Shown here: piece by piece, positions 8,122 to 32,278 of the stretch
How positions within the stretch are numbered: the stretch's first letter is position 1
How the letters are laid out: each line of letters starts with the position of its first letter
NCBI GenBank assembly: GCA_003990765.1
Contig: RBNJ01000357.1
Span: forward strand, 1 to 32,278
Direction: 5' to 3'
Origin: Jimgerdemannia flammicorona
Taxonomy: Eukaryota
Length of the DNA stretch: 32,278 nucleotides
The notes under the pieces: model-generated
What the model was told of the DNA's origin: nothing
Databases searched by the model: none
Seen by the model: only the letters and a program-made list of their open reading frames with translations
Position numbers and translations under genes: made by a program

Positions 8122-11100
8122 TTACTGCCTGGGCCGCCCCTGTTGCTGCTGTTGCTGCTTCGCCATCTTTTTCTCCTCCTCCGCCGACATCGGCCCCCCC
8201 TTCGGCAAAACAAACCCACCAATATTGTCTCCCCTAGGAGGCTTAGCCGGCGCGACAGACGCGGTAGTGGCGGTGCGCGCGGGGAGAGGCACAGGGCTCT
8301 GGGTCAGCCTTCCCGCGGCATTGTTTCCATCACGGATGACGAACCCGCCAACGTTGTCGGCCCTCTGCGCCGCGGCCAGCGCTGGCGTCTGTGCGGGAGA
8401 GGGTGACCCAGAGTACTGCGGGTCCTGCTGAGGATGCCAGTAGGTTGGCTGTTGCTGCGCGCCGTACTGCTGCTGCGCGTACGCGAAGTGCTGCGCAAAC
8501 TCCGAATAGGGGCGCGGCGCGGGTGCTGCGACCTGTTGCGCTTGTTGGTATAGCTGGCCGTAGTTGTAGGTTGTGTAGGTAGGGTAGGGAGCCGTCGCTT
8601 GTGGGGCAAGCGTGTTGGCGTAGCCTTGCGGAGGGGACGGCACCGCGGACTGGTAAGGCGACGTGTGCGTTTGGAGAGGGGACGGCACCGCGGACTGGTA
8701 AGGCGACGTGCGCGCTTGGAGAGGGGACGGCACTGCGGACTGGTAAGGTGACGTGTGCGCTTGGAGAGGGGAGGAGAAGAGGCCCGGGGCCGGCCCGTCA
8801 TCCACCTGGACCTTGTCATCGGTATATGCGGCAGCGGCGGCACCGGCGGCCATGGCAGCGACAACCTCGGCGTCGAGAGGTACTTGATGTTTGGAGACCG
8901 CACGGGCCAGGGAGGTGCTGCCGGTGGCGGCCTCGGCTGTGAGGGGTACTTCGTGTTTGGAGACGGCACGGGCAAGGGAGGTGCTGCCGGTGGCGGCTTC
9001 GGCCATGAGGGGTACTTCGTGTTTGGAGACGGCGCGGGCCAGGGAGGTACTTCCGGTGGCTGCCTCGGCTGTAAGGGTTTCTTTGGTCTCCGTGGATTCT
9101 GTTTTGGTGGTGGTGGCCGTGGTTGTGGCGGGGGCAGAGGTGCCGGCGGCAGCGGCAGCGGCGGCGGCGGCGACGGTGGTGGTGGTCGTGCTGACCCTCT
9201 TGTTGGTGATGACGGTAGAGTGGAATTCCTCGATGGAGTCGGTGGAGAGGGTGCGGCTCGGGTGATGGGCCACGGGCACGGGCTCGTACTCGGACGGCTT
9301 CTGGTACTCGGTGGGCTCCTCGGCGGGCTCCTCGGCGGGCTTCTGGGTGACCGGGTAGGCTGGGGGCGGCGAGGGCGGCGAAGGCAGGTTGTCGAAAGCG
9401 GCCTCGTCGGAACGGATAGTGGTCGAGGTCTCGACCCTCGTACTGCCAGCGACGACAACAGTGATGGACGAGTCTGTGGAGAGCTGGCGATCCCGCTGCG
9501 GGGCCAAGGTCTCCTGGCGCTCCCGCTGCGAGGCCAAGGTTTCCTGGCGCCCCGGCAGTGACGCCAAGGTCTCCTGTCGCTCGGAAAGCGAGGCCACAGT
9601 CTCCTGGCGCTCCGGAGGCGACGCTACGCTCTCCTGGCGCTCCGGAGGCGACACCACGCTTTCCTGGCGCTCCGGAGGCGACGCTACGCTCTCCTGGCGC
9701 TCCGGAGGCGACACCACGCTTTCCTGGCGCTCCGGAGGCGACGCTACGCTCTCCCGCGTGCTCTGACGGAAGGGAAGTGGCGGTGAAGAAGCGAGGCTAG
9801 CGACGGAGTCTTGCGGTGTCATGAACATAGTCTGCCTCGATACCGGCGGGGAGGGCGTGGACGGGTACAGCGTAAAGTTAGGAGATGAGGAGTCCGAGGT
9901 CAGGTTATCCCTCGTGAGTGGCGGGGACGGCAAAGACGTGTACAGGGAAGTGGTGTCCGACTCCACCGAGTCCTGCGACGCCAGACGCTCCCTCGTCAGC
10001 GGCGGCGACGGCATAGACGCGTACAGCGACATGCCGTCCGAGTCCTGCGAGTCCTGCGACGTAACCGAGGCCAACCGTTCCCTGGAGTGGGCGGAGCGCG
10101 ACGAGGCGCCGATCCCCACATCGACGTCATCGGCAGAGACGGCGTGCTCGGCAGCGTCGTGCTGCAGCTGGGCCATACGGGTCGAAGGGTGACGCGACAA
10201 CGCCATGTTCTCCCCACTGTCGTTATCTTGCTGGTAGAAAGCCTCCGCGCCTACCTTTTGTGTCAGCGTCGGGCGCTCGTCCAGCTCGGGGGCGTGCCAC
10301 CCGTTCACCGCTTCAAGCGCGTCCGCAAGAACCTGGGCTGTCTGCCGCCCACCCTTGTACTCGGGGCGCTTCCCGCCCATCACGGTGGGGGTCACGTCAA
10401 TCTCATCGATGATATAACGGCCGAAACCGGCGAGGATCGCCGTCTTCTCCGCGACTTCAAAAAGTGCGTTGAATTGAATGTAGAAGGCCTCGCGGAGGGC
10501 AAAGCGCTTGAAGTCTGCGAGCTCGGTCTCTTGTTCTTGCGTTTCGTGGTCAAGGGCGACGAGTTCGTGCTGGAATTCTTTGAGTTTGGTGGACCTGGGA
10601 CTCGTTTTTTGGAGGTTCTGGATGCGCATCTGCAAGTCGCGCTTCTTCTGGCGTGAGTCGAAGAGGGCCTCCTCGCGGATGCGGATCGACTTGAGGGTCG
10701 AGCGATATTGCTGGTATTTGACTGAAGAGGACGGGAAGGGAGGCAGAGTAGGGGTGGGTGAGTGGGTGAGTTGAGGGCTCGTGTAGGAACGGGAGAATCG
10801 GACGTGTGGAATCAGAAAGAGCGTCCTACGATATATCTATATAATATATATATATGATGATTCTTACTGGCAAACGCGGATTCGATTTCGGCCTGCTTGG
10901 TGAGCAACTGACGGAGTTTGTCGGTAATGTCCTAGTAAGTTGGGTCGTTGCAAAGCGTTTCCCGTTAAATCACGCTGTTTTTCTGGTAAGGAGTCCCACC
11001 TCCTCGTCTTTCTCTTCTTCCTCTTCTAGCCCAATTACACTCAATTCACCTTCTTCTAGCCCATTACTCTCAATTCATACCCATGTGTATATATATATAT

Positions 11101-12631: not shown

Positions 12632-13250
12632 TATGTTGTTTGTTTGACAAGTGACGAAAAAAGTAAGAGATAGAAAGAGAAGTAGAGCGGTCAACGTACG
12701 GTCCTCGGCGCCGCTTTTTAAAAGTAGCGTGTTTCCTGGGGAGGGTGTGGGGTGTGGGAGTGTGGGAACACTGGATCTGGGTCCCGTCATGTGACGTGCT
12801 GCCTTTTTCGGCTCTAACCATCGTCGCCGAGGGGTCGAAGAACGCCCGCAAACATCTGGACCACCGGATTGTCGCGCGGCGTTGTGACGTTTTTTTTTTT
12901 TTTAATTACAAGCATAAAGAACAGTTTGTCTTGCGTATGTATAAACAGGATAGGGCTTTGTTCTACATGTCAAGCATCACGAATCATCCGCCTTAAAAGC
13001 TTTCTGTGATCCGTGCCCAACACATGACTCGGCCTCGCACTGATTTGACATGTGCAGATGATGCCGTCGCCCGTAAGTTTGCGTGAGGTACCGTGCCGTG
13101 CCGTGGCCCTTTTCAAACGTACACGGCATTGGCGCACGTTCTCTGTTCCCTCATGACGTACCACTGTTGGCAACCTCGAGTCGCACGGTGGATTTGGGTT
13201 TCGCTGCCTTTGTACATACGGCGCAGGGGTTGATCGGGCGCAGTGGCCGA

Positions 13251-13468
13251 GCCATTGTTTAGCTACGATGATTGTAATTTAATTAGGTGTATTAGGTGTA
13301 CAATTTGGAGACAAGCAGATAAATAAAGCGTGGCGGGTCAATTGGACCAAGGGATGTGCCATTGTTTAGCTACGAACATTGTTATTTAATTAGGTGTATT
13401 AGGTGTACAATTTGGAGACAAGCAGATCAATAAAGCGTGGCCGGTCAATTGGACCAAGGGATGTGCCA
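13251..13468. repeat. 107-bp tandem duplication (13251-13357 / 13358-13464) with GCCA junction microhomology
   Basis: Two copies of gccattgtttagctacga...ggtcaattggaccaagggatgt, with 5 mismatches counted by eye. Confidence 0.92.
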
Positions 13469-13769: not shown

Positions 13770-15824
13770 CTATTCCACCTCCTGCTCCACCTCCTTGCCT
13801 TCCCCTTCTTCAGCCACATCAATTCCCACTGCCTCTTCCTCCCCTTGCATCCCAGATCGCTCTCCCGTCCACTCCGTCCCCATCGGCACCATCTCCACCA
13901 CGACCTCTTCAATCGGCGCCAAGGGCGACACCTCCAACCTAGCGACCTGCCTCCACACCGCTGCCACCCCCTCCGCGACGATCGTCGCCGACGCCGCCGA
14001 CGCCGCCTGCGCTCGGGTCGGGTCCGCCGGCATTGCACTCCGCGTTCGCGCGCCCTCATCCGCTGCCTGTTGCGCTGTCTCCGCCACAGCTGCGGCATCC
14101 GCAGCCGCTTGCTCTGCCGCCTGATGGAGCTGTTTCTGTCGCTCTTGCACTTCCTTGGGAAGGCAATTGAACTTGCAGACGGGACAAAAGGGCGATTTCT
14201 CGGTTAGCCAGGGGTCTGTGGGAGGGTGAGTGGATATAAGAGATTAATGAGTGAGATGTGCATTGCGTACAGATGCTAATCAATCGTGCCACAGTAAGCG
14301 AATAGTAAAAAAGAATGACGAAAACTTACCAATGCAGTGGACGTGATAGACATGCCCACAAGGCAAAACCCTGACCTCATCATTCGGCCGCGCCTCTCCT
14401 TCTGCCCCCGCTCGCCCCTCTTCCATCCCGACGGTACTAGTACTGCCGTTCACCGGCTCCTGCACCCTCATCTCCTCCTTCCTCACCGTGCTCGCCTGCT
14501 CGCTGCTCTCGCCCCCCTCCACCGCAATCGTCTCCACCGCCATCTCAGTCTCCCCCTCCGTCTTTTCATCAAAGTCCATCAGGCAGATCGGGCACCCGTT
14601 GTTCTTTGCCTGCGTCAGGTGGAACCGCGTGATCGGGAACGTGGCCAGTGTCTCACGGTCCAGCGTCAGCCCGAGCGGTTTCAACGCAACAGTTGCCCGT
14701 GCCAGATCGGCCATGAGGCGCGCCGTTGAATCTGGGGGGTATATACAGAAGAAACGGTTCCAAAAGATGATGACTTTATGGAAACGAAAAGATGGTTATT
14801 GGCGTTAAAGCACAGAGATCGATGGCAAGTTTGAAGGTTCAACGATATGACAATTGTGTGACGGGGCCATGAAACAATTACCGTCGAAAAATAAATATAA
14901 AATAAAATAAAATAGTGAACCGTTACTACTCACGTGCCACCCCCAAAATAACCGCCGAGCAACACCCGACAATGGCTCCGATCGCGCTCCCGCTTAACGA
15001 CCCGTAGGTCGAGAGCTTGGACGTCGGATTGATGACCTGGGTCACTTGATCCATGCTCAGCGCCAATATGACCTCGACGTAGTTCTTGGTCTGAGTCACT
15101 TCGAACTTGACGGCCTTCGCGTCGGCCAGTCGACTGAGTAACATCTGCCCCATGACGGCGTCGACATACACAGCCGACGCAGTGTTCGATTCCCCATCGC
15201 CCTGGTCGGCCTTCAGCCCATCGTACGTCTGCGTCGACGTATCGTTGTTGTAAATGATGAAGGCTGTGAAATTTGTGTTCGGGTATGCCTGCTGCGCGAA
15301 CACAAACTTGTCCGTCAGGTGGCAACCGCCTCCACGGGAGATCAGCCCGATCGTCGGCGCTGAGGTTACGGCGAACGGGGTCGTCGAGTCGGTGAGGATG
15401 TTTGCGATGGGGAGGGAGGAACAAGAAAAGTTGAGATCGGCGAGTATACCCTGTAGAGAGGTTTAATAGAGAGAGAGATGTGTTGGTATCGCGCGGCATC
15501 GTGTATTGGAAGCCCTCAAAAAAGATCCCCACTGAACCACATGCACGAAAACCATCTACTCACCCATACCGCCATCTGCAACACAACGCCCGGAACAGGC
15601 AACACTCCCGTCGACACTGTGATATTTCCTGCCGTCGTGTCGGGGTTCGCGGACAACACGCTCCAGTCAGTTATGATCGGCGTCCATAAAAGTCGCTGCT
15701 CATACAGCGTGAAGCTCGTGAAGAGGGGCCCAGAGTCCGGACCTTGCCCGATCACGGCGGCGGCCAGCGTGGCGAGCGAAAGCGCTAGGAGGAGGCGCAA
15801 AAGGGTAGAACCGCGGAAGGTCAT
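13770..15824 (-). CDS. PA-TM-RING-H2 E3 ubiquitin ligase (RNF13/RNF130/Goliath-like architecture), 4 exons (15824-15570, 15450-14934, 14773-14330, 14215-13770), ~553 aa; frame stays open to TGA at 13578-13580
   Basis: Signal peptide MTFRGSTLLRLLLALSLATLAAA; PA motif IGLISRGGGCHLTDKFVFAQ...FIIYNN; TM AIGAIVGCCSAVILGVALIIFW; RING-H2 CPIC...[27 protein letters not shown]. An alternative in-phase donor exists at 15563. Confidence 0.88.
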
Positions 15825-22829: not shown

Positions 22830-22985
22830 GGCCGTCAACGCCTTCGCAAGGCTCTCGAACCCATCAAAACCTCCACTTCATTGAAGCTGAATATGATCGA
22901 AGATGAGGGCGCAACCACCTTTGCAAAGGCTCTCGAAACCAATAAAACTCGCGCCTCGTTTAATTTGGTATTGAATCGGATCGAA
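22830..22985 (+). pseudogene. Ribonuclease-inhibitor/NLRC3-like leucine-rich repeat fragment (~2 degenerate repeats)
   Basis: KALEPIKTSTSLKL--NMIEDEGATTFAKALETNKTRASFNLVLNRIE fits NxIGDEGAxxLAKALxxNxTLTSLxL. The DNA repeat aaggctctcgaa(c/a)cca occurs twice. No complete gene is visible. Confidence 0.65.
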
Positions 22986-23029
22986 ACAAAATACTCGGAA
23001 AGGAAAACAAGAGCGGAGAACCTGTATAT

Positions 23030-23737
23030 ATATTTTTTTTAATATATATATTCTCTTATAACTAAATATAACTATATCACATTATAAAATAATATATGTA
23101 TATACCTTTATTATACAATAGTTAGATTAATTTTTAGTTAATTTTTAATAGATAGATTGATATACAGTTAATAACTTTACAATAAATCTATTTAGACGAT
23201 TTTTTTTTTTTTTCTCAATAGTAACACTTACTGGTATCAATATTTAGCAGCTTATTAGTATTAACTACTAGTATATAAATTTTCTCTAAAAATTCTATAT
23301 TAGAGAGTTTGCACTATAAAGATTTTCTTTGTAAATTTAACAGAATTTTTTGTAGACCCCCCTCTAGAAGTAAAAGATTTTTGCTAATATGGGAGATTTT
23401 CATTAACTACTTTTTGGCCATCTGCAGTCTGAAACATTGATAAGATATATATATTATACAATATATACAGACCTAAGAGGGATGTTCTTGAAGCTATTTT
23501 AAGACTGTGAGCTATTATTATTATTATTGTATTAGCTATATATAAGATAAGTATTCATTATTATTGTATACTATATTCATTCCTAACTACTTGCATTTAT
23601 ATACTATTGTATTCACTCTATCTACCATACTTCTATACTTGTACCTGCCAAACTCACACCAGGTGTTGTACTCATATATAGCAGGCACTTTGATTGTGAG
23701 AAGTGTTATAATATAGAACAGAAGGAGAGTTTCATGT

Positions 23738-23740
<3 letters not shown>
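23030..23740. mobile_element. Very AT-rich, CpG-depleted degenerate repeat relic(s), unclassified
   Basis: Abrupt switch to TA-rich sequence after the LRR fragment, with a single CpG (23197). No recognisable translation. Confidence 0.4.
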
Positions 23741-23774
<34 letters not shown>

Positions 23775-23784
23775 TTTTTTGTTT

Positions 23785-23823
<39 letters not shown>

Positions 23824-25164
23824 GTTACTTGGACTCCTGGCTTTATTATCATATTCTATATTATATTAATTACAATATTCCATCCAACCTACTACTCAAT
23901 CTCCCTAAGAGGGACCCCACTAACTTCTATCTGTTTGAAGACCACTTGGCCCTCAATTACCTCTATTCAACCCCTGCTCTGTCTGTAGATCCCCTCAATA
24001 AGCCAGTAGTAACAGCTACTCTGAGGCCCCCAGCCCACCCACCAGCTAGTCAAGAGATCCTCCATCAGCCTATTCCATCTCAACAACCTCTCTGCAATAC
24101 TCAACTGCTGTCCTCCCTTAAATACAAAGAGCCAATATCTGGCCAGCCTTACCCAAATTGCCAAGACCCAGCTATATATAATCTACTCATTTCTTACTTT
24201 CTCTACAAGATGTTCCTTCAAATCCTCCCAATGATCCCTCACCTCTTCCCCTCTTATGGACCTCCAGGTACTCCTCTATAGTAATCTAGAAATTACTAAG
24301 TACCTTACACTCTCTCAGCCAATATTTAGATAATTGTACAAAACTCTCTTTCTGCCCCACATTAAGGTACTCCTTATACTCAAACTCTCCACTCTCAATC
24401 AAATATCTAGAGTGAAAGTTCAGCATAATATTTCTCCTTAGTATATACCACCATACCACCCAGAACTTGGGGGGAAGCCACCACTTGACCTCAGTACTCT
24501 AGGACTAAACTCTATCTCAATTCTACTCCTCATCTATATTAACACCCTGCCAGCCCACCAGCCATATGTCCAACCCTATCTCCCTCTGATACTCAATACT
24601 ATCTCCAATATCAAAGTCAATAAGAGGTGAGCCCTCAAGCAGAAGTCTATCTCAGTACTATATCACTGGCCCTCAATATAACTCTCTCTCATCACTCTAC
24701 TACTGTAGTCCAATATGATGCATCCCCACAGCAATCTCCTACCAGAATTCTTTGAAGTATAATCTCTCACTGTTCTGCAGGCCCACCAGTAATAGAAGAT
24801 CCCCCATAGAACTCCTTAGAGAAACCCTCAACTCCTACATCTTCTATATCAAAGAGACCTAGATACTCTCTTGCAATTTCACCACTCTTCTCAACCACCA
24901 GGTCCTCAAGTAATAGAACTTTCTCAGGAAATCTACTAGACCAAGACCACTATAGTTCACTGGTAGGAAAAGAGTTCTTCAGCTAATTTGACTTCTATAC
25001 TCTACTCAGATTCAATCCTTAGCTAACTTCAATAGCTATCATACTATCTAAGAAAAAAAGTCTAGATAGTAAGCCAAGTACCATATCTTTGATAGCCAAT
25101 AGATATTCAGAATTGCCACTCTATTAGCCAGAGAGATATAGTGCCCTCTCCAGCTCTAAAGTGT

Positions 25165-25167
<3 letters not shown>
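23741..25167 (-). mobile_element. 5'-truncated, heavily mutated non-LTR retrotransposon (L1/Tx1-like ORF2 C-terminal half plus poly(A) tail)
   Basis: The minus-strand pseudo-translation gives SWRGHYISLANRVAILNIYWLSKIWY (cf. LSLxGRVxLxNxxxLSKLWY), IS*RTLFLPVNYSGLGLVDF (cf. SWxxLxLPKxxGGLGLxD) and a zf-RVT-like LPPKFWVVWWYILRRNI...CGAERE...WLRECKVLSNF*. An ~80-nt T tract at 23741-23820 corresponds to the poly(A) tail. Confidence 0.82.
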
Positions 25168-25210
<43 letters not shown>

Positions 25211-25390
25211 AAATTGGTACTTACATACGCCCCAGACTTTCAATGTCGGATGTCATCGGATATCACCAATATACGCCATACCTCAATCCTACATTAAGCA
25301 CCATGGACCTTGTCAATCATACATCACACGAACACGCATCATGAACCTTGTCCAAATAAATGAGAGCGAGCATACCTTGAAGAAAACAGA

Positions 25391-25770
25391 TGTCAGAATT
25401 ATAGAGCCCACGCACGCATGTCAGCACCCGCGCATGTCAGAACGTATCCCGCGCATGTCAGTGCTATACCTATGCACATCAGCACTATAGCCCCTGTAGC
25501 ACCTGCGCATATCCTGCGCTGCGTATGTGGAATCATAGTGCCCGCACTAGTCAGAACATATCCTGCGCATGTCAGCAATACAACCCTGCGCAGTTGAGAA
25601 TTATAGTGCCCGCGCTAGTCAGAATGTATCCCGCGCATGTCAGCAATACAACCCCGTGCAGGTGAGAATTTTAGGGCCCGCGCATGTCAGAACATATCCC
25701 GCGCATGTCAGCCCTACAACCTCTGCGCATGTCAGCACTACAGCTCCTGCGCATCACCGCGCATCACCTG
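25391..25770. repeat. Minisatellite with a ~21-26-nt core (cc(c/t)gcgcatgtcag...) organised into 68-bp higher-order units (25530-25597, 25598-25665, 25666-~25733)
   Basis: Many gcgcatgtcag-like cores; gaat(c/t)(a/t)tag(t/g)gcccgc recurs at a 68-bp period. Confidence 0.85.
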
Positions 25771-27458
25771 GTGTTGGTCCTCTGCTTTTTCTGTGGCGTT
25801 TGCAGTCACTCCTTTATATCTGAATTTCGTCAAGTTAGTCGAGCTATTGGTGCTTGACGTTGCGTCATCTGCTCAACAATACTCTTCTGGAGTAGCTCTG
25901 ATCGTCCAGCGTACCACCTGAAAAGTTTTTCTAAATGACTGATCATACGATCTATGAAAAACTACAAATGGAATACAATAAATAATGGAAACTCGTTCAT
26001 AGATAACAATAAAGAGAAAACTGATATCAGAAACTTACCCTCAATCGTATAAACCCTTCTAACAATACTTTGAGTAAATATGTCACACTATGCTCATTCA
26101 GTGGAAATGTGAAACGGTCTATTTCCTGAAACCTATCACATAGTTATATGAAAGGTTGATGGTGTAGACCATGACTTGACAACCTATTGATTGAGAATTA
26201 TATCTTACGTCAGATTAGCATTAATAATAACAACAAATGTCTGTCAACATACCAACGATCTGGACACCGAGGACAAAAACCTTTTGCAGATCCTGATGGT
26301 TAGACCCTCTCAATGAAGTTAACAACAATCTGTTTAAGGCATGCTTCATGCCTCGCATTAGTTTCAATTTATCAACACATGCTTTGGTTCCATATAATTG
26401 CTTGCCAGGGGGTGCAAATTCTATAAGCATAACCTCTAGCTGATTCGAATAGAGAGATCCGATAACATCTGTTCTCTGACCTATTTGTACACGGTCTTCC
26501 TCTTCAATTTCATTATTCCGTTTTGCCGCAGAGGCAATGAGTGAATTTTCCCCCCTATGGTTAAGATAAGAATAATCTGTTAAAATTTCGCTATTAGGAG
26601 CAAGGTTCGTTCTGCCAGAGCGAGGACAACTTACCACTTCCATATCAATTTATCAGATAAACCCATCATAGTTTTCTCGAATATCAGCGAAAAAAACCAA
26701 ATGACAAACGAAGCTTCGAAAACCTCAGCAGAAATTGTATGCCCTTCTAAATAGGTGTGCACGCTTGCTCAAAAAAAAAAAAAAAAACACATGAAATCGG
26801 TTACGATAGATAGAGTGGCGGCGTGCCCAGGGACGAGCAGAGCGCAGAATTTGTGGACCTACGCCCGGCGACAGGCAACCCCCAAGCCGCTGAATTGCCA
26901 AGTCCGCGAGGCTGATGAGGAACGAGGAGTGGAAAGGCCCAAAAGTCAATACATACATATTCTGAGTAGCGATGTGAAGTCCGGTCAATCCACGAACATC
27001 AGGCGAATTGTCTGCTTCGCCAATTTCATGTAGCATATATAGATATCCTTTACCCAAATTTCGAATCATTTGTGTGCTATTGCCCTAAAGAAGATAGCGT
27101 ATCATTCCTAATGTCTCATAATTTTAAAGAAAAAAAGACGGCGAGGTAAAAGAAACACCTACCCCATTCTCACAGAGAAATTCAATGGCTTTTTGGTAAT
27201 TTGCCGGAATGTCGTTTTCCAGTGCGGCCAACATATGTTGGAAATCATCCTGCATCTCTTGCCATTCTTCTGTTGAGACTATCCGACTCTTGCCAGAAAG
27301 ATCGACTATGGCATCTTCCTCCCTAAGCATTAACTCTGTAACATTGAGTCCAGTACGCAACACATAATTGTTTGGATCTGCTATGTTTAACTTTCAATTA
27401 TATTCGTATTCGTTAGCCTTCAAATTATCACGATAGCTGCGTCACGTCCAGCAATATG

Positions 27459-27494
<36 letters not shown>

Positions 27495-27861
27495 TACATA
27501 TGTTTGGGAATTTAATATCTTTCCAAAATCTTTTAACCTCTGAATTATCCTGAGAACGAAGATAACTAAGTGTGAACATCGTACAGATGGTACTAGAAAT
27601 TGAGAATACAAGCAACGAATGTATATTTACCAAATTGAGTTCAAATGGTTCGATATATTCCTTAATATACTGTGGTATATCTGTAGATCAGATACGTCTA
27701 AGACATTGCTTATAGGTTTGGTACAGGGATGTCTTCTCGCTAAGGTCGATTTTTCTTCCACCCTGGACGAATTTCAGAAATTTGATGCAGGTCCACTCGC
27801 GCCAGAGTATGCTCGCGAAAAACGGAGACACGTCAGGGATTTCAATGGTGTCGTCGCTCAT
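25754..27861 (-). pseudogene. Multi-exon PD-(D/E)xK restriction-endonuclease-like gene (Crinkler-REase-type family), copy A, disrupted
   Basis: Spliced core LIWKW|GENSLIASAAKRN...GQRTDVIG...LEVMLIEFAP...TKACVDKLKLMRGMKHALNRL...VFVLGVQIV|GCQVMVYTINL...RFQEIDRFTFP...FIRLR|. Frameshifts near 27825 and 26138, and in-frame TGA stops near 27687 and in the last exon. Confidence 0.7.
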
Positions 27862-28084
27862 TTTGCTACGTTTGAGTGAAGTTTAACAAGAGAAATGGAG
27901 GAAGAGCATGCTCACCTAGCAGGCTCTCATGGCTCTCCGAACCCACTGAAATACCTATTACTATACTCACAGGAAATACAAGGCAGGGTAGAGATATGTG
28001 TTGAGCATGGATCTCAGTGGCGTATGGCGGCGTTTGGAATGTTTATTTATGAAGAAAAAGGTGATGTCACCAAATTCTGCCCAA

Positions 28085-28605
28085 TAGGGGGGCTACATGT
28101 AAATTTGCCTGCACGTAACTACGGGTTAAGGGATATATATTTTATACATAGTTTGTCTAATTTTGTAAAACTTCTTCTATACAATATATTAAAGAATATA
28201 TATAGAAATACCCCTATATATGATATCCATAATATTCTACTTTTTAGAGGGGTTTCTTTTTTTCCTAGGCTCTTGGGATGTTTCTGGTAATTCTCACTTC
28301 TTAGAGTTTAATTTCTGCTGACTTCATCCAGAAATATCTTCTTGATAAATTGCATTTATATTTTTGTTAAAATTATTGAAATTGACATATATATAGTTGT
28401 TGGTAAATTTCATAAGTAATTCTCTCTTTATCCAAATATTCTTGAATAGCTTTGATGTCAGATATTTTAAAAACATAAGGAGCAATTTTCTCTCCTTGTT
28501 CTTGTTTCAAAATGCTTCTGATCACACTATAGTTTTTGGGTTCCATCATAGATTTGATGTGAATTAGTTTCATATAGTTATTTTTATATAGGGATAGTCC
28601 TATGT
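28085..28605 (-). mobile_element. AT-rich CpG-free insertion relic with residual coding frame (28373-28600) and a TAGGGGGGCTACA terminus-like motif
   Basis: No CpG between 28124 and 28607, with a sharp composition border at ~28605. The product is unrecognised. Confidence 0.4.
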
Positions 28606-29110
28606 ATCGCACAACGTGATCGACGGACACAGCACTGGGCGAGAAAAGAGGTCCTTCTTGACACGATTCATCTTAAACCGCGCTCGTGCAAAATCATTGT
28701 TTTTAACATACCATTCGCAACATTCTTCTACGTAAGTCTCATCTAGCATCGAGTTCCATGTATTGTGTTTCGAAACAAGAATCGAAAACATTTGCCTGCA
28801 AAACAGTTTAAGAGATAGTTAGCACTGTGCTGTAGTGCCAAAGCTTTCCTTTTAGTTTCATTATCGTTGTGCGATGTATTTACAGCAATATTGATGCTCT
28901 ATACTCGCCTCGTGCCAAACTGTCATGTGCGGAGTTACATCCATTCGTGCGCAAGTACTTTTTCCACCGTCATCTCTTTTCCATCAGTTTCTTCCCCTTG
29001 ATTCGAGGGAATCAAACCGCTGAATTATTTCCTTAGCAACATCCCCAACTGCGTGTAGAATCCGTCCGTTTATCAACGGAAGCATTATCAACAATAGTCT
29101 GATTTTTTCG
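28606..29110 (-). pseudogene. Degraded gene fragment, possibly a protein kinase C-lobe plus downstream helical domain
   Basis: GDVAKEIIQRF...(frameshift)...EMTVEKVLAHEWM* resembles kinase subdomain XI (AKDLIxxLL...RxTxxExLxHxW). It is followed by NTWNSMLDETYVEE...SVDHVVRYI. Multiple stops and frameshifts. Confidence 0.35.
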
Positions 29111-29210
29111 ATTATATAAGTATATTGCAACAGGTTGATACTCTTGTCGCGGGAGGATTGATTTATTGACAGAAGGGATAGTGTTAGGAAGTTGTAGGTA
29201 GAACAATAAT

Positions 29211-30263
29211 TCATTTGTCTTCATAGATATTATCAAAAATCTCAAAAGGATCGCCCTTTTGCTTCTTTACATTTGGCGTCGTGGAGGTCAGTTGCGGTGG
29301 TGACGACGGCGGCGTTGGTGTGTGGTCTCGATTTGCGGAAATAAGCTGTCTGAGATATTTGTCTTGTTGTAGCAAAGTGCGCTAAGGTTCAAAGGATATC
29401 CCGATTAGCTTAAAGCACATAATACAGAATAAATACAAGAAAATAGTTGACTTACCCGCAAGGAGAGCAAGTTCAGAATGAAACGAGGCAAAAAGTCTTC
29501 CAAATTGGAGAGCGTCGTAGGAAGTTCGAAAGTAGCGAGTTGGTTGAAAAAATAAAATTCCGAAATCGGGTCATAACTCATGGAATATGCGATCCATCTA
29601 TGACCTGGTGTAAGTATCAATTGTCAGTACCAAAAATAGTCGATAAACATCACTGACATAGTCGGCTCGTCTCATACCTATGATTTGGAGGCCGATAAGG
29701 AACACTTCTTGCAGTGCTTTTTTTTTCAGCCCCAATCGCCACCAGAACATATCCACACAATCCTTCAAGGCGATTTTCAACTTGCATCGGTCCAATCTGC
29801 ATTTGTTGCCGCTGGTTGGCTCCGCGCTGTCTGAATTTCCAATTTCCAGCAAGAGTAACTCCACCTCATATCCGCGCATTTCCACTATCATGTCCATCTT
29901 CATGGTATCGTTGCAGAGAATCGAATATTTTGCATCCACATGGCGGCGCTTCCTCGCGGTGACAGCTTTGCATTCTTTTTCGATCCTGACGATCGGTAAG
30001 AAACCAGTCAATGAACACAGGAAGAGGAATAATATCACATCAAAAGGTCAAAAAGGTATGGTGAGTGAAAGAATAATGCAAAGTGGAATCCGGAGACTTA
30101 CCAATACACTTCGAACCGACCAATATCGAATTTTTCCAGTAAGTTTCCCAGCAAGGGTCCTAGAATCTTCATCACCACGTCCCGTTCTCTCAGATCCTGA
30201 ACTAGGATATTAATTTCCCGGGATAAAGTTTCTTCGCTATAAAAAAAAAAAAAAAAAAAAAAA

Positions 30264-30309
<46 letters not shown>

Positions 30310-31599
30310 TGTTATCTCATTATCCTACCTTTGAACTGAAGAACGCGATAAGACAGATGAACTTACAAATAACTGACGATTTCTGCCGCCAACCTTGCAT
30401 CTTCTCCATCAATACTCTCGAATGCCATCTTCCACGTTTTCAATGCAGCAATTGACATCTATGAATTACATCCATTGCGCTTAGAGCCAGTTCCACATGA
30501 AAAAGCATCGGTAGCTCAATATAACAGACAGCAAAAGCAGTTTACCAAACCATCCGGAGGATTTCCGATTATATTTCGCACTTTAGCATCTACAGCAGTC
30601 TTTTCCATCATCCTACGAGTGCGTTTAATGAGTATGCCGTGGTCACCCGTTTCTAAGATACGCCTCCATTCCACGTTGTTCCACTCTGCCAAGTCGATTA
30701 TCCTAGATTCGATAGACCTGTGGTTCAATTCCCAGACCTTTAGATCACGGTCCATATGAACATGCGCTAACGGAGGATTTTCAGAGAAACAAAAAATGAA
30801 ACTTACTGGACATGCGATCCACTTCTATTTAGTCTTGACATAACCTTTTCCCAAATTTCCTCGAGAGTGAATCCTGAATCCAAAATGAGCGACGAGAACT
30901 GACGTGTTGTATGTATTAGACTTATATCTTAAAGAATACGCATGACAAGGAAGAAGTGGTTCAAACTAGATACGTTACCCGATCTGTCGCCTGACTGTCG
31001 GTAACTAACAGCTCATGACTCATTCCATCGTCACCAGCTATTGACTCAGTCTCTCCCTCATCATCAACTATTGACTCACCGTCATTCTCAGTCTCTCCCT
31101 CCAAACTTAGCGAATCTGTGCGTCCACTCCTCTGCAAGAACGCACTCTTGACATTGGCGCTCATTACAATGTGTTCTTCCATAACGTGAAGTTTCACCTC
31201 GGTATCGAGTTTCTTCTGCATAGCCGCAATGATGGAATATATGAAATAATTGTCAGGTTTCATCAACTCCTTGTATCGTGCTCCAACGATCCCAACCTAT
31301 ACCTCTGACTCTTTTATCTGTTCGTGCCTTTCGAGATCCCGCCAAAAGGAAAGACACTGTGGCTGTTCAAAATCGGCTTTGGCCTTGGTGCGTAAACGTT
31401 TCGCGTTCTTCATTAAACTCGTCGGTGTTCGCGCTTTATTGTTGATTAAAAGACCGAGCGCGTCCAAGTAATCCTTTTCCGCAGCAGCACGGGCACCATG
31501 AGGGTATTTAAACTTGCGATAGAAATCCAGCACAGTCAAGCCATGGCCAATCCGTGACGCGATGAAATTGTATTTTTTGATAATGTCTGGTGAAGGCAT
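29211..31599 (-). CDS. Multi-exon PD-(D/E)xK restriction-endonuclease-like gene (Crinkler-REase-type family), copy B, nearly intact
   Basis: Spliced core DLRERDVVMKILGPLL...FEVYW|IEKECKAVTARKRR...MKMDMIVE...VELLLLEIG...NKCRLDRCKLKIALKDCVD...VFLIGLQII|GHRWIAYSM...YFFNQLATFELPT...LLSLR|, with canonical donors (GTAAGT x4, GTATGA). Possible lesions are a TAG at 31297-31299 (may lie in an 87-nt intron) and a 1-nt frameshift near 29340. Confidence 0.7.
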
Positions 31600-32053
31600 G
31601 TTGACGACAGAAACGCGCCTGTGGCTTTGATGACTGTGACGTCGAAATAATTTTTTTTTTCTTTCGACAACACACCTTAGGTTGTTGCCTCGACTTCCTT
31701 TGAATGTACTGGCCGGCGTATCTCCTTCATGTAAGTCCTCTTACTTGCGGGGAGGCCTTGAATGCGTCAGAATGGCTTTGCGGCTCGCGTCCTCCGCGCG
31801 TGACAAGATAGTGAACGATCAGCACCCTGCTCACGCAAAAAGCCTGCCGTTTGCTACCGCACTGCAACGTCTACTGGACACTCTTGCGTTTCGGCTATCT
31901 TGATGACCGGCGTATCTTCTTCATATGGGGCGTGCTGCAACAAAACCAGACAAAGTGAACATTAGGATGATGTTATGTTATTTTATTTATTTTTTTCAGA
32001 GCCACAAATACAATCGCTGTTATCCCTGCTCGAAGATAATAAAAAGGAACTGC

Positions 32054-32239
32054 TTATGCTTCGATTCTCCTATTCAATCTACGTCCGGTGTGTCTTAAAT
32101 ACATTTGAATTGGAAACATGATAATGCCAAGAATTACAGAAAAGAAAAGGCAGTAAACAAAGGTCACAATGGGATTGCCTGGTAATGAAGGTAGCCCGAA
32201 AACAATGCGGCGGGAGCGAGGAGAAAGACGGTGCAACAT
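32054..32239 (-). other. Short ORF with one hydrophobic segment, possibly the 3' end or relic of a membrane-protein gene extending past the window
   Basis: IVTFVYCLFFSVILGIIMFPIQMYL followed by basic residues; no family recognised. Confidence 0.2.
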
Positions 32240-32278
32240 GTAGAAATGAAGAAATGGGCATCCGCAACATCATAAAAA

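Follow-up and report, generated by a model that had tools for sequence, protein, structure and literature searches.

What process removes every CG dinucleotide from two kilobases of fungal DNA while the DNA on either side keeps its own? The question is raised by a contig deposited under Jimgerdemannia flammicorona (GenBank assembly GCA_003990765.1, contig RBNJ01000357.1, positions 1 to 32,278 of the forward strand; this whole stretch of 32,278 nt is hereafter called the window), in which a CpG-free block contains the remnant of a long interspersed nuclear element (LINE). A preliminary description of the window, made from the letters alone, attributed the block to a repeat-targeted C-to-T process, perhaps methylation-driven or resembling repeat-induced point mutation (RIP), and saw in it a candidate for an undescribed genome-defence system. 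RIP is the textbook fungal genome defence, and the window offers a clean, sharply bounded, context-specific C-to-T tract in the Endogonales, which opens to direct test the old question of whether transposons were already being mutated by cytosine methyltransferases before the Dikarya arose. The answer to which we give moderate confidence is C-to-T hypermutation of a duplex insert by transposon-directed cytosine-5 methylation followed by deamination, seen here at a single locus.

The window contains 1874 CG dinucleotides. Its longest run free of CG spans 2031 nt between the CGs at 23197 and 25228, in agreement with the CG-free region (23199..25227), the CpG-rich flanks and the sharp borders first described; after it in length come gaps of 486 nt (28122-28608) and 183 nt (23014-23197). 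Base composition predicts 46.0 CG in the LINE part of the block (23822-25167) and 10.6 in an AT-rich segment to its left (23216-23740), and neither contains any. The observed/expected (o/e) ratio of CpG is 1.07 in the left flank (1-23013) and 1.01 in the right flank (25228-32278). On the right the background is already reached at 25211-25310, with 4 CG versus 4.1 expected, and on the left 22914-23013 has 7 CG versus 4.2 expected. TpA is raised, as had been claimed, with o/e values of 1.15-1.25 in the block compared with 0.73 in the left flank (0.73-0.74 over both flanks), and the TpA/ApT ratio is 1.04-1.23 in the block compared with a median of 0.73 outside it. There is no excess of TpG (o/e 0.90) or CpA (o/e 0.93). 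Of the remaining C and G, the share found in CpT/ApG is 0.40-0.60 across the block versus a median of 0.23 outside, and this share is a simple marker of such a tract. Low GC alone is not sufficient to produce the gap, since 12 of the 15 low-GC windows of 300 nt outside the block keep a CpG o/e of 0.55-1.63, the other three being located in a patch at 28.1-28.6 kb.

A HMMER search with the X-masked translation among 1.84 billion representatives matched 34 proteins at E<=1e-3 and three at E<=1e-10, and RVT_1, zf-RVT or Exo_endo_phos was found in 10 of the 19 relatives scanned, none of these being present in the other nine. By its protein relatives, the right 1.35 kb of the block is identified as a 5'-truncated remnant of ORF2 of an L1-like LINE (apurinic endonuclease (APE), reverse transcriptase (RT) and zinc-finger type) on the minus strand. 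The remnant is collinear with residues 720-1143 of P0084, a 1143-aa ORF2 from a metagenome, gapless over 310 residues (tblastn E 2.9e-88), and thus begins at about residue 720 of 1143. The presence of a LINE in the block was in this way supported by both HMMER and tblastn, although it is limited to the right 1.35 kb and does not include 23216-23740. No Pfam family was matched by the remnant's own translation, because only the damaged region after the RT domain is present. Closer relatives are P0091 and P0090, with 103/201 and 103/202 identical codons, respectively. Homologue searches gave four matches with P0085 and, in the length class searched, none with residues 700-1143 of P0084. A metagenome scan for DNA of the relatives over the C-terminal part found one locus, L001, which ends before that part, and scans of genome contigs and viral contigs for the C-terminal DNA found none. 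L001 is a 4546-nt metagenome contig with an open ORF1 and residues 2-690 of ORF2, 73% identical to P0084. An alignment of 13 fragmentary relatives had a mean column identity of 17% and was set aside. The LINE family is scarce in the databases searched, and its proteins (P0084, P0085, P0074) are rich in W, G, E, R and V.

Read along the minus strand, the block and its left neighbourhood consist of the following features:

25168..25210, minus strand (T43 on the plus strand): A43 tract, adjoining the LINE on the side of its truncated 5' end; the mutated tract has its right border here, and the first CG beyond it is at 25228.
24235..25167, minus strand: first part of the LINE ORF2 remnant (segment A), 311 codons, of which 21 are premature stops, corresponding to P0084 residues 720-1030, from the region after the RT domain through the zinc finger.
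24234, minus strand: frameshift by a 1-nt indel, the only one in the 1.27-kb ORF remnant; tblastn matches stop at 24235 and restart at 24233.
23895..24233, minus strand: second part of the LINE ORF2 remnant (segment B), 113 codons, of which 2 are premature stops, corresponding to P0084 residues 1031-1143, with 45/113 codons identical to P0084.
23892..23894, minus strand: native ORF2 stop codon TAG, its position matching the end of P0084.
23822..23891, minus strand: 3' untranslated region of about 70 nt, with AATAAA at 23842-23847, 20 nt ahead of the tail.
23741..23821, minus strand: LINE poly(A) tail, 81 nt with 3 interruptions.
23216..23740, no strand assigned: AT-rich CpG-free segment, 525 nt, GC 0.28, CpT/ApG share 0.50 versus a background of 0.23, TpA/ApT 1.22.
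23200..23215, minus strand (T16 on the plus strand): A16 tract, closing the AT-rich segment; the last left-hand CG (23197) is 2 nt past it.
23014..23199, no strand assigned: very AT-rich stretch, 186 nt, GC 0.17, 2 CG versus 1.3 expected, CpT/ApG share 0.52, TpA/ApT 1.16; its composition is like the signature but it has few C and G, and it is a possible part of the mutated tract.

LINE sequence amounts to 1346 nt in total (25167 to 23822, minus strand). The statement that long stretches keep their frame was correct, except for the one frameshift near 24234. The A tracts of 81, 43 and 16 nt contain 3 non-A bases in 140 nt. To judge from its sequence and position, the A43 tract was probably the A-rich target site of the LINE. 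The flanks share no word of 6 nt or more that could represent a target-site duplication; both junctions are A tracts, which are able to hide one. The AT-rich segment at 23216-23740 could be an older retro-insert, a 3' transduction or flanking DNA reached by spreading mutation. Homology of this segment, and of the second CpG-free patch (28122-28608), to the LINE or to L001 was looked for by alignment after projection of G to A and C to T, and was rejected, the scores being within or near the shuffle range; the only excess score (48 versus a shuffle maximum of 37) came from A/T runs. Long A or T homopolymers of 15-70 nt are also found across the intergenic DNA of the window, at 254, 3545, 12886, 20678, 21849, 26772, 27459 and 30241, in addition to the three in the block, the longest being that at 30241-30306 (about 66 nt). 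These scattered tracts may be preferred LINE target sites or tails of old retro-inserts.

The direction of change was assessed by comparing each codon of the remnant with the corresponding P0084 residue, with the frames corrected for the frameshift at 24234. The codon was identical in 185 of 424 cases. Reversal of C>T/G>A changes restored 127 of the 239 mismatches, the opposite reversal 6. A parsimony spectrum against P0084 gave 134.2 G>A and 46.5 C>T changes versus 27.5 A>G and 5.0 T>C; G>T was at 26.8, A>T at 25.7 and every remaining class at 12.8 or below. With P0091 as the reference, 62 of 98 mismatches were explained by C>T/G>A reversal and 4 by the opposite. The control, intact L001 compared with P0084, was symmetric (G>A 49.7 and A>G 43.7; C>T 10 and T>C 10).

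The premature stops, 23 in total (21 in segment A and 2 in segment B), are located at 16 Trp, 3 Arg, 2 Gln, 1 Lys and 1 Glu positions; a single frame read throughout would show 33. Codon readings against P0084 bore out the earlier observations that Trp positions appear as TAG or TGA, that likely Cys and His residues of the zinc finger appear as Tyr, and that GG-LG appears as SG-LG. At the 37 Trp positions the remnant has TGG 20 times, TAG 11 times, TGA 5 times and CTT once, while TAY is read at 4 of 5 Cys positions and TAT at 6 of 10 His positions. In the zinc-finger stretch, Tyr stands in place of two Cys and one His, and the GGLG motif reads SGLG. Among 38 Arg positions AGR was kept at 12, with TAY at 7, CAY at 4 and CAG at 4; judged from the codons, the positions reading TAY are CGY codons in which both bases have changed. 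Altogether 141 of 420 scorable C:G sites, about a third, were changed. As this compares with one frameshift as the only indel in 1272 nt and 3 changes in the 140 nt of A tracts, the copy is hypermutated relative to other kinds of change.

The sequence context of the changes was determined with six protein relatives as references, at sites where C>T or G>A alters the residue. Of the 424 codons, 223 matched a reference and 126 were explained by a unique reversal, and the 73 unexplained and 2 ambiguous codons were excluded. An additional within-codon subset, containing only same-codon neighbours that are fixed by the residue, guards against mislabelling by unseen synonymous changes. Sites changed, out of sites scored, were as follows:

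CpG: 34/44 in the window copy, 11/63 in the intact L001 control, 32/42 in the within-codon subset.
CpA: 49/114 in the window copy, 6/156 in the control, 25/63 in the within-codon subset.
CpC: 52/182 in the window copy, 18/274 in the control, 27/115 in the within-codon subset.
CpT: 6/80 in the window copy, 7/136 in the control, 4/35 in the within-codon subset.

CpT stayed at the background level of the control; the excess over the control was about 11-fold for CpA and about 4-fold for CpC. With the full set, Fisher tests gave p=1.9e-8 for CpA versus CpT, 8.5e-5 for CpC versus CpT, 0.012 for CpA versus CpC and 1.5e-4 for CpG versus CpA, and in the within-codon subset the order was unchanged (CpA versus CpT, p=0.005). 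Sense-strand hits were CG 16/24, CA 12/26, CC 4/17 and CT 2/28, and antisense hits CG 18/20, CA 37/88, CC 48/165 and CT 4/52. The effect of the 5' neighbour was weak (AC 0.33, CC 0.41, GC 0.32, TC 0.20). CHG-type symmetric methylation was rejected as a description of the pattern, CTG being hit at 0 of 11 sites versus 11 of 30 for CAG. The hit fraction was even along the element (0.29-0.51 per 200 nt). Non-CpG sites made up 107 of the 141 inferred hits (76%) and CpG sites 34, on both strands, which agrees with the C-to-T process on CpG plus CpA/CpC that had been postulated, and differs from a pattern of mutations at CpG only. The copy thus records a strand-symmetric C>T process that is ruled by the 3' neighbour, acts on duplex DNA and does not go beyond the retro-insert, except perhaps into its left neighbour; the data show the direction, context, strand symmetry and confinement of the damage.

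The native composition of the family was taken from L001, whose sense strand has A 0.25, C 0.146, G 0.40 and T 0.20. The LINE part in the window was described as C-rich, correctly (C 0.297 versus G 0.115 on the plus strand). The 2064 nt of ORF2 in L001 hold 50 CG (24 CpG per kb; o/e 0.41), with o/e values of 0.62 for TpA, 1.38 for CpA and 1.23 for TpG, and at this density about 32 CG would be expected in the remnant, which has 0. Since intact L001 is skewed yet holds 50 CG, the block shares its strong GC skew with the family, but not its CpG-free state or its raised TpA; the possibility raised earlier that active copies are natively CpG-free does not apply to this intact relative. A strand-biased process as the source of the skew was rejected on the same ground, the skew being native in L001. 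Intact-looking copies of the family already have CpG o/e values of 0.41-0.57, with CpA and TpG raised. The RIP indices proposed in the preliminary description gave a divided result. TpA/ApT is elevated in the LINE part (1.18 versus 0.54 in L001), but (CpA+TpG)/(ApC+GpT) is 1.15 (1.66 in L001) and does not reach the RIP threshold, which is a value below 1.03. Both indices are shifted in the RIP direction relative to intact L001.

The host was identified by an ORF of RPE65 type, 96% of which aligns at 98% identity with 'carotene dioxygenase [Jimgerdemannia flammicorona]'; weaker matches followed in a J. flammicorona paralogue (62%), in Endogone sp. (60%) and in Mucorales (about 40%). A protein-atlas search added nothing on taxonomy. 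This similarity places the host in Jimgerdemannia or near it (Endogonales, Mucoromycotina), in line with the non-Dikarya fungus initially suspected, and ordinary ascomycete RIP is excluded because the host is an Endogonales fungus.

According to the explanation we favour, an L1-like LINE, 5'-truncated, would have inserted at an A-rich site in a Jimgerdemannia-like genome. Once duplex genomic DNA, the insert would have been mutated C-to-T on both strands, the adjoining 0.5-kb AT-rich segment probably alongside it. The rate depended on the 3' base, with all CpG destroyed, about 40% of CpA and about 25-30% of CpC changed, and CpT not above background; other substitutions are few, there is one indel, and on the right the damage ceases within about 20-60 nt of the insert. 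Cytosine-5 methylation aimed at the transposon, followed by enzyme-assisted or spontaneous deamination, would account for this, since a context set by the 3' base and a complete removal of CpG are the marks to be expected of cytosine-5 methyltransferases. Candidate enzymes would be the DIM-2-like methyltransferases reported for J. flammicorona in the literature on isolate AD002, and the outcome would be RIP-like with a context order of its own. Our inferences concern the identity of the enzyme, its tempo (burst or slow decay) and a possible role of repeats; one copy fits either tempo.

Several points weigh against this explanation. There is only one copy at one locus, and repeat dependence, timing and genome-wide generality are outside its reach. 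The ancestor was reconstructed from protein relatives that are 44-51% identical to the damaged copy, with 73/424 codons unexplained; synonymous changes are invisible to this approach, and neighbouring bases may have been mutated too. In the within-codon subset CpC did not differ significantly from CpT (p=0.16). CpG was hit more than CpA, unlike in Neurospora, and for the LINE part the RIP substrate index, (CpA+TpG)/(ApC+GpT), stands at 1.15, outside the classical range. A sharp border on the right is as compatible with mutation before or during insertion as with targeting in place. J. flammicorona is reported to have more than 77% repeats (review PMC10386755), and any such defence therefore does not keep transposons out. 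Finally, no RIP signatures were detected in Mucoromycotina, as stated in Dallaire 2021, citing Venice 2020.

RIP is set off by sequence duplication ahead of meiosis, and its order in Neurospora is CpA first, with CpG low. The damage resembles RIP by the RID pathway, known from Neurospora crassa and other Pezizomycotina, in that both strands of a DNA duplex have undergone C>T/G>A transitions at rates that depend on the 3' neighbour, and also in the enrichment of TpA, the dense nonsense codons and the near absence of indels. It is unlike it in that the host belongs to the Mucoromycotina, in the order CpG > CpA > CpC with CpT spared, and in that CpA is far from exhausted, as the substrate index of 1.15 indicates. 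Location of the damage within a transposon copy with a sharp border is a further likeness to RID-mediated RIP, in which mutation remains within the repeats, as described in a preprint by Gladyshev and Kleckner. According to Navarro-Mendoza et al. (2023), RID (RID-1) is reported exclusively from Pezizomycotina, while DIM-2-like homologues are reported in Endogonales. Their Dataset S1 lists three DIM2-class proteins of 1187, 1038 and 1085 aa with BAH and C5-MTase domains for J. flammicorona AD002; among those of its rows that were inspected, none for J. flammicorona is of the DNMT1 or RID1 class.

Neurospora DIM-2 can itself mediate RIP, with a very strong CpA preference and spread into single-copy DNA, according to the same preprint. 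The DIM-2 pathway resembles the present case in that a DNMT1-superfamily enzyme methylates all contexts and is able to yield C>T in or near repeats (PMC13297926 and the preprint). On the left, 0.5-0.7 kb of non-LINE DNA has the signature, which may be a spread of the damage. The DIM-2 pathway differs in that CpG is hit most here and the right border is sharp, with background reached within 100 nt, whereas the spread described for Neurospora in the preprint is two-sided. The DIM-2-like genes are candidates for a link to this locus. The TpCpG hypermutation of Pucciniomycotina, as presented by Horns et al. (2012), is likewise a RIP-like, CpG-centred C>T process in transposons outside the Ascomycota, but is strictly TpCpG, while in the window all CpG plus CpA and CpC are affected and TC is the lowest of the 5' contexts (0.20). 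Decay through CpG methylation (DNMT1/DNMT5 type, as in R. irregularis and Basidiomycota) shares with the block a transposon-limited loss of CpG beside CpG-normal genes, and L001 is already CpG-reduced; it differs in that 107/141 hits are non-CpG and that TpG (0.90) and CpA (0.93) are not raised. The pattern, with CpG first, CpT spared, a sharp right border and possible spread to the left, matches neither the RID nor the DIM-2 pathway fully. With three DIM-2-class homologues on record for J. flammicorona, the process is more likely to be a variant of an established one of methylation or RIP type than the new defence system suggested in the preliminary description.

Among the alternatives, the one that survives best, although we consider it unlikely, is slow passive decay only, in which constitutively methylated heterochromatin would lose 5-methylcytosine (5mC) by spontaneous deamination in several contexts, with no dedicated or repeat-triggered mutator. 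It has the methylation step in common with the favoured explanation and differs from it in tempo and in whether the process is a defence. Complete loss of CpG is the result to be expected of maintained CpG methylation, and chronic CpG decay is visible in intact L001, both in its composition (CpG o/e 0.41, CpA 1.38, TpG 1.23) and in the control comparison, where CpG was changed at 11/63 sites versus 4-7% in other contexts. The contrast of 141/420 C>T hits with 3/140 changes in the A tracts is also within the hypermutability of 5mC, the commonly quoted value of which covers such a ratio of C>T to other change. In R. irregularis, which belongs to a related phylum, transposons are highly CG-methylated, according to Dallaire 2021. 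On the other hand, one indel in 1272 nt and the near-pure A tracts (81, 43 and 16 nt) suggest a young insert, yet a third of its C:G sites have changed; non-CpG hits exceed CpG hits (107 versus 34); and low-GC DNA elsewhere in the window keeps its CpG in 12 of 15 windows.

Editing at retrotransposition, in which a cytidine deaminase would have acted on the LINE RNA and/or cDNA during copying and left damage coextensive with the insert, is improbable. The end of the damage about 20-60 nt from the 5' junction is as it predicts, and if 23216-23740 were a 3' transduction ending in A16, the CpG-free tract would be one retro-copied unit. However, the per-site rates and the context order are alike on both strands, whereas editing of first-strand cDNA alone would give sense G>A only. 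Known AID/APOBEC enzymes read the 5' neighbour, and here the 3' neighbour decides and the 5' effect is weak (0.20-0.41). The second CpG-free patch at 28122-28608, with a like signature and no LINE homology, also speaks against it.

Slightly more improbable still is inheritance of the damage from a source copy that was already hypermutated and from which the present copy was mobilised in trans. This would account for the coincidence of the damage with the borders of the insert, but a template with 23 premature stops could not have provided the ORF2 protein itself, and elements of L1 type are mobilised chiefly in cis; in addition, the 186 nt to the left of the A16 tract show the signature as well, if weakly. 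Native composition or ordinary neutral decay towards AT, to which the native GC skew (L001 sense G 0.40, C 0.146) and the richness of the relatives in W, G, E and R could point, can be dismissed, as it is already contradicted by the 50 CG in 2064 nt of L001, the direction of change (127 versus 6), the effect of the 3' neighbour (p=1.9e-8), the flank CpG o/e of about 1.0-1.1 and the symmetry of the L001 control.

A more far-reaching proposal, that an active transposon-directed C-to-T mutator exists in the Endogonales, RIP-like, operated by DIM-2-like methyltransferases without RID, and hitting C before G, A or C while sparing C before T, is at present tentative and rather doubtful. If it were true, the heterochromatin-related branch of RIP would be older than the split between Mucoromycota and Dikarya, in conflict with the published view, in which Mucoromycotina lack RIP-like signatures and only Ascomycota have them. 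In the k-mer screen of Badet and Croll (2025), which took in the whole fungal kingdom, RIP-like enrichment was limited to Dothideomycetes, Eurotiomycetes, Sordariomycetes and Leotiomycetes; the screen covered scaffolds longer than 50 kb only, and the terms 'Jimgerdemannia' and 'Endogon' are absent from the main text of the paper. Such tracts could escape screens based on indices, owing to the native G skew of the family, the CpA that remains and a substrate index outside the classical range. A literature search, which did not extend to the genome paper of Chang et al. 2019 (doi 10.1111/nph.15613) or to Venice et al. 2020, found no report of such hypermutation in Endogonales.

The stops noted elsewhere in the window (position 13770, the region 16.3-17.3 kb and 'REase copy A'), which had been tentatively ascribed to the process acting on the block, are unlikely to be explained by it, because the CpG o/e in those kilobases is normal (1.05-1.15) and a Pfam scan in six frames, run over 11.5-18.3 kb and 25.2-32.3 kb, gave no transposon domain. 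The DNA at 14.3-15.5 kb is a RING/PA-domain gene. The CpG-free, AT-rich patch at 28122-28608 has a signature like that of the main block, with 1 CG versus 8.8 expected, a GC content of about 0.27 and a CpT/ApG share of 0.41-0.45. It overlaps a minus-strand ORF of 99 aa (28376-28672), the start of which lies in CpG-rich DNA, and searches of the patch gave no Pfam family, no protein-atlas match and no LINE homology.

Intron-split fungal genes in the window encode a phenol hydroxylase, Med22, an aldehyde dehydrogenase, a Pil1 eisosome protein, an ORF with RPEL repeats, the RING/PA-domain protein and the RPE65-type oxygenase. A CpG-rich tandem array at 25416-25733, of about four copies of a 68-nt unit with a repeated GCGCATGTCAG motif, begins 200 nt to the right of the mutated block and is unmutated (13 CpG versus 13.9 expected at 25411-25610). 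Two tandem copies of a 107-nt unit, 80% identical and with normal CpG content, are present at 13213-13426. The open frame with the Pil1 eisosome domain (904 aa, 8125-10836, minus strand) has a very GC-rich repetitive tail, with tandem units of 30, 45, 66 and 81 nt at 8625-10056.

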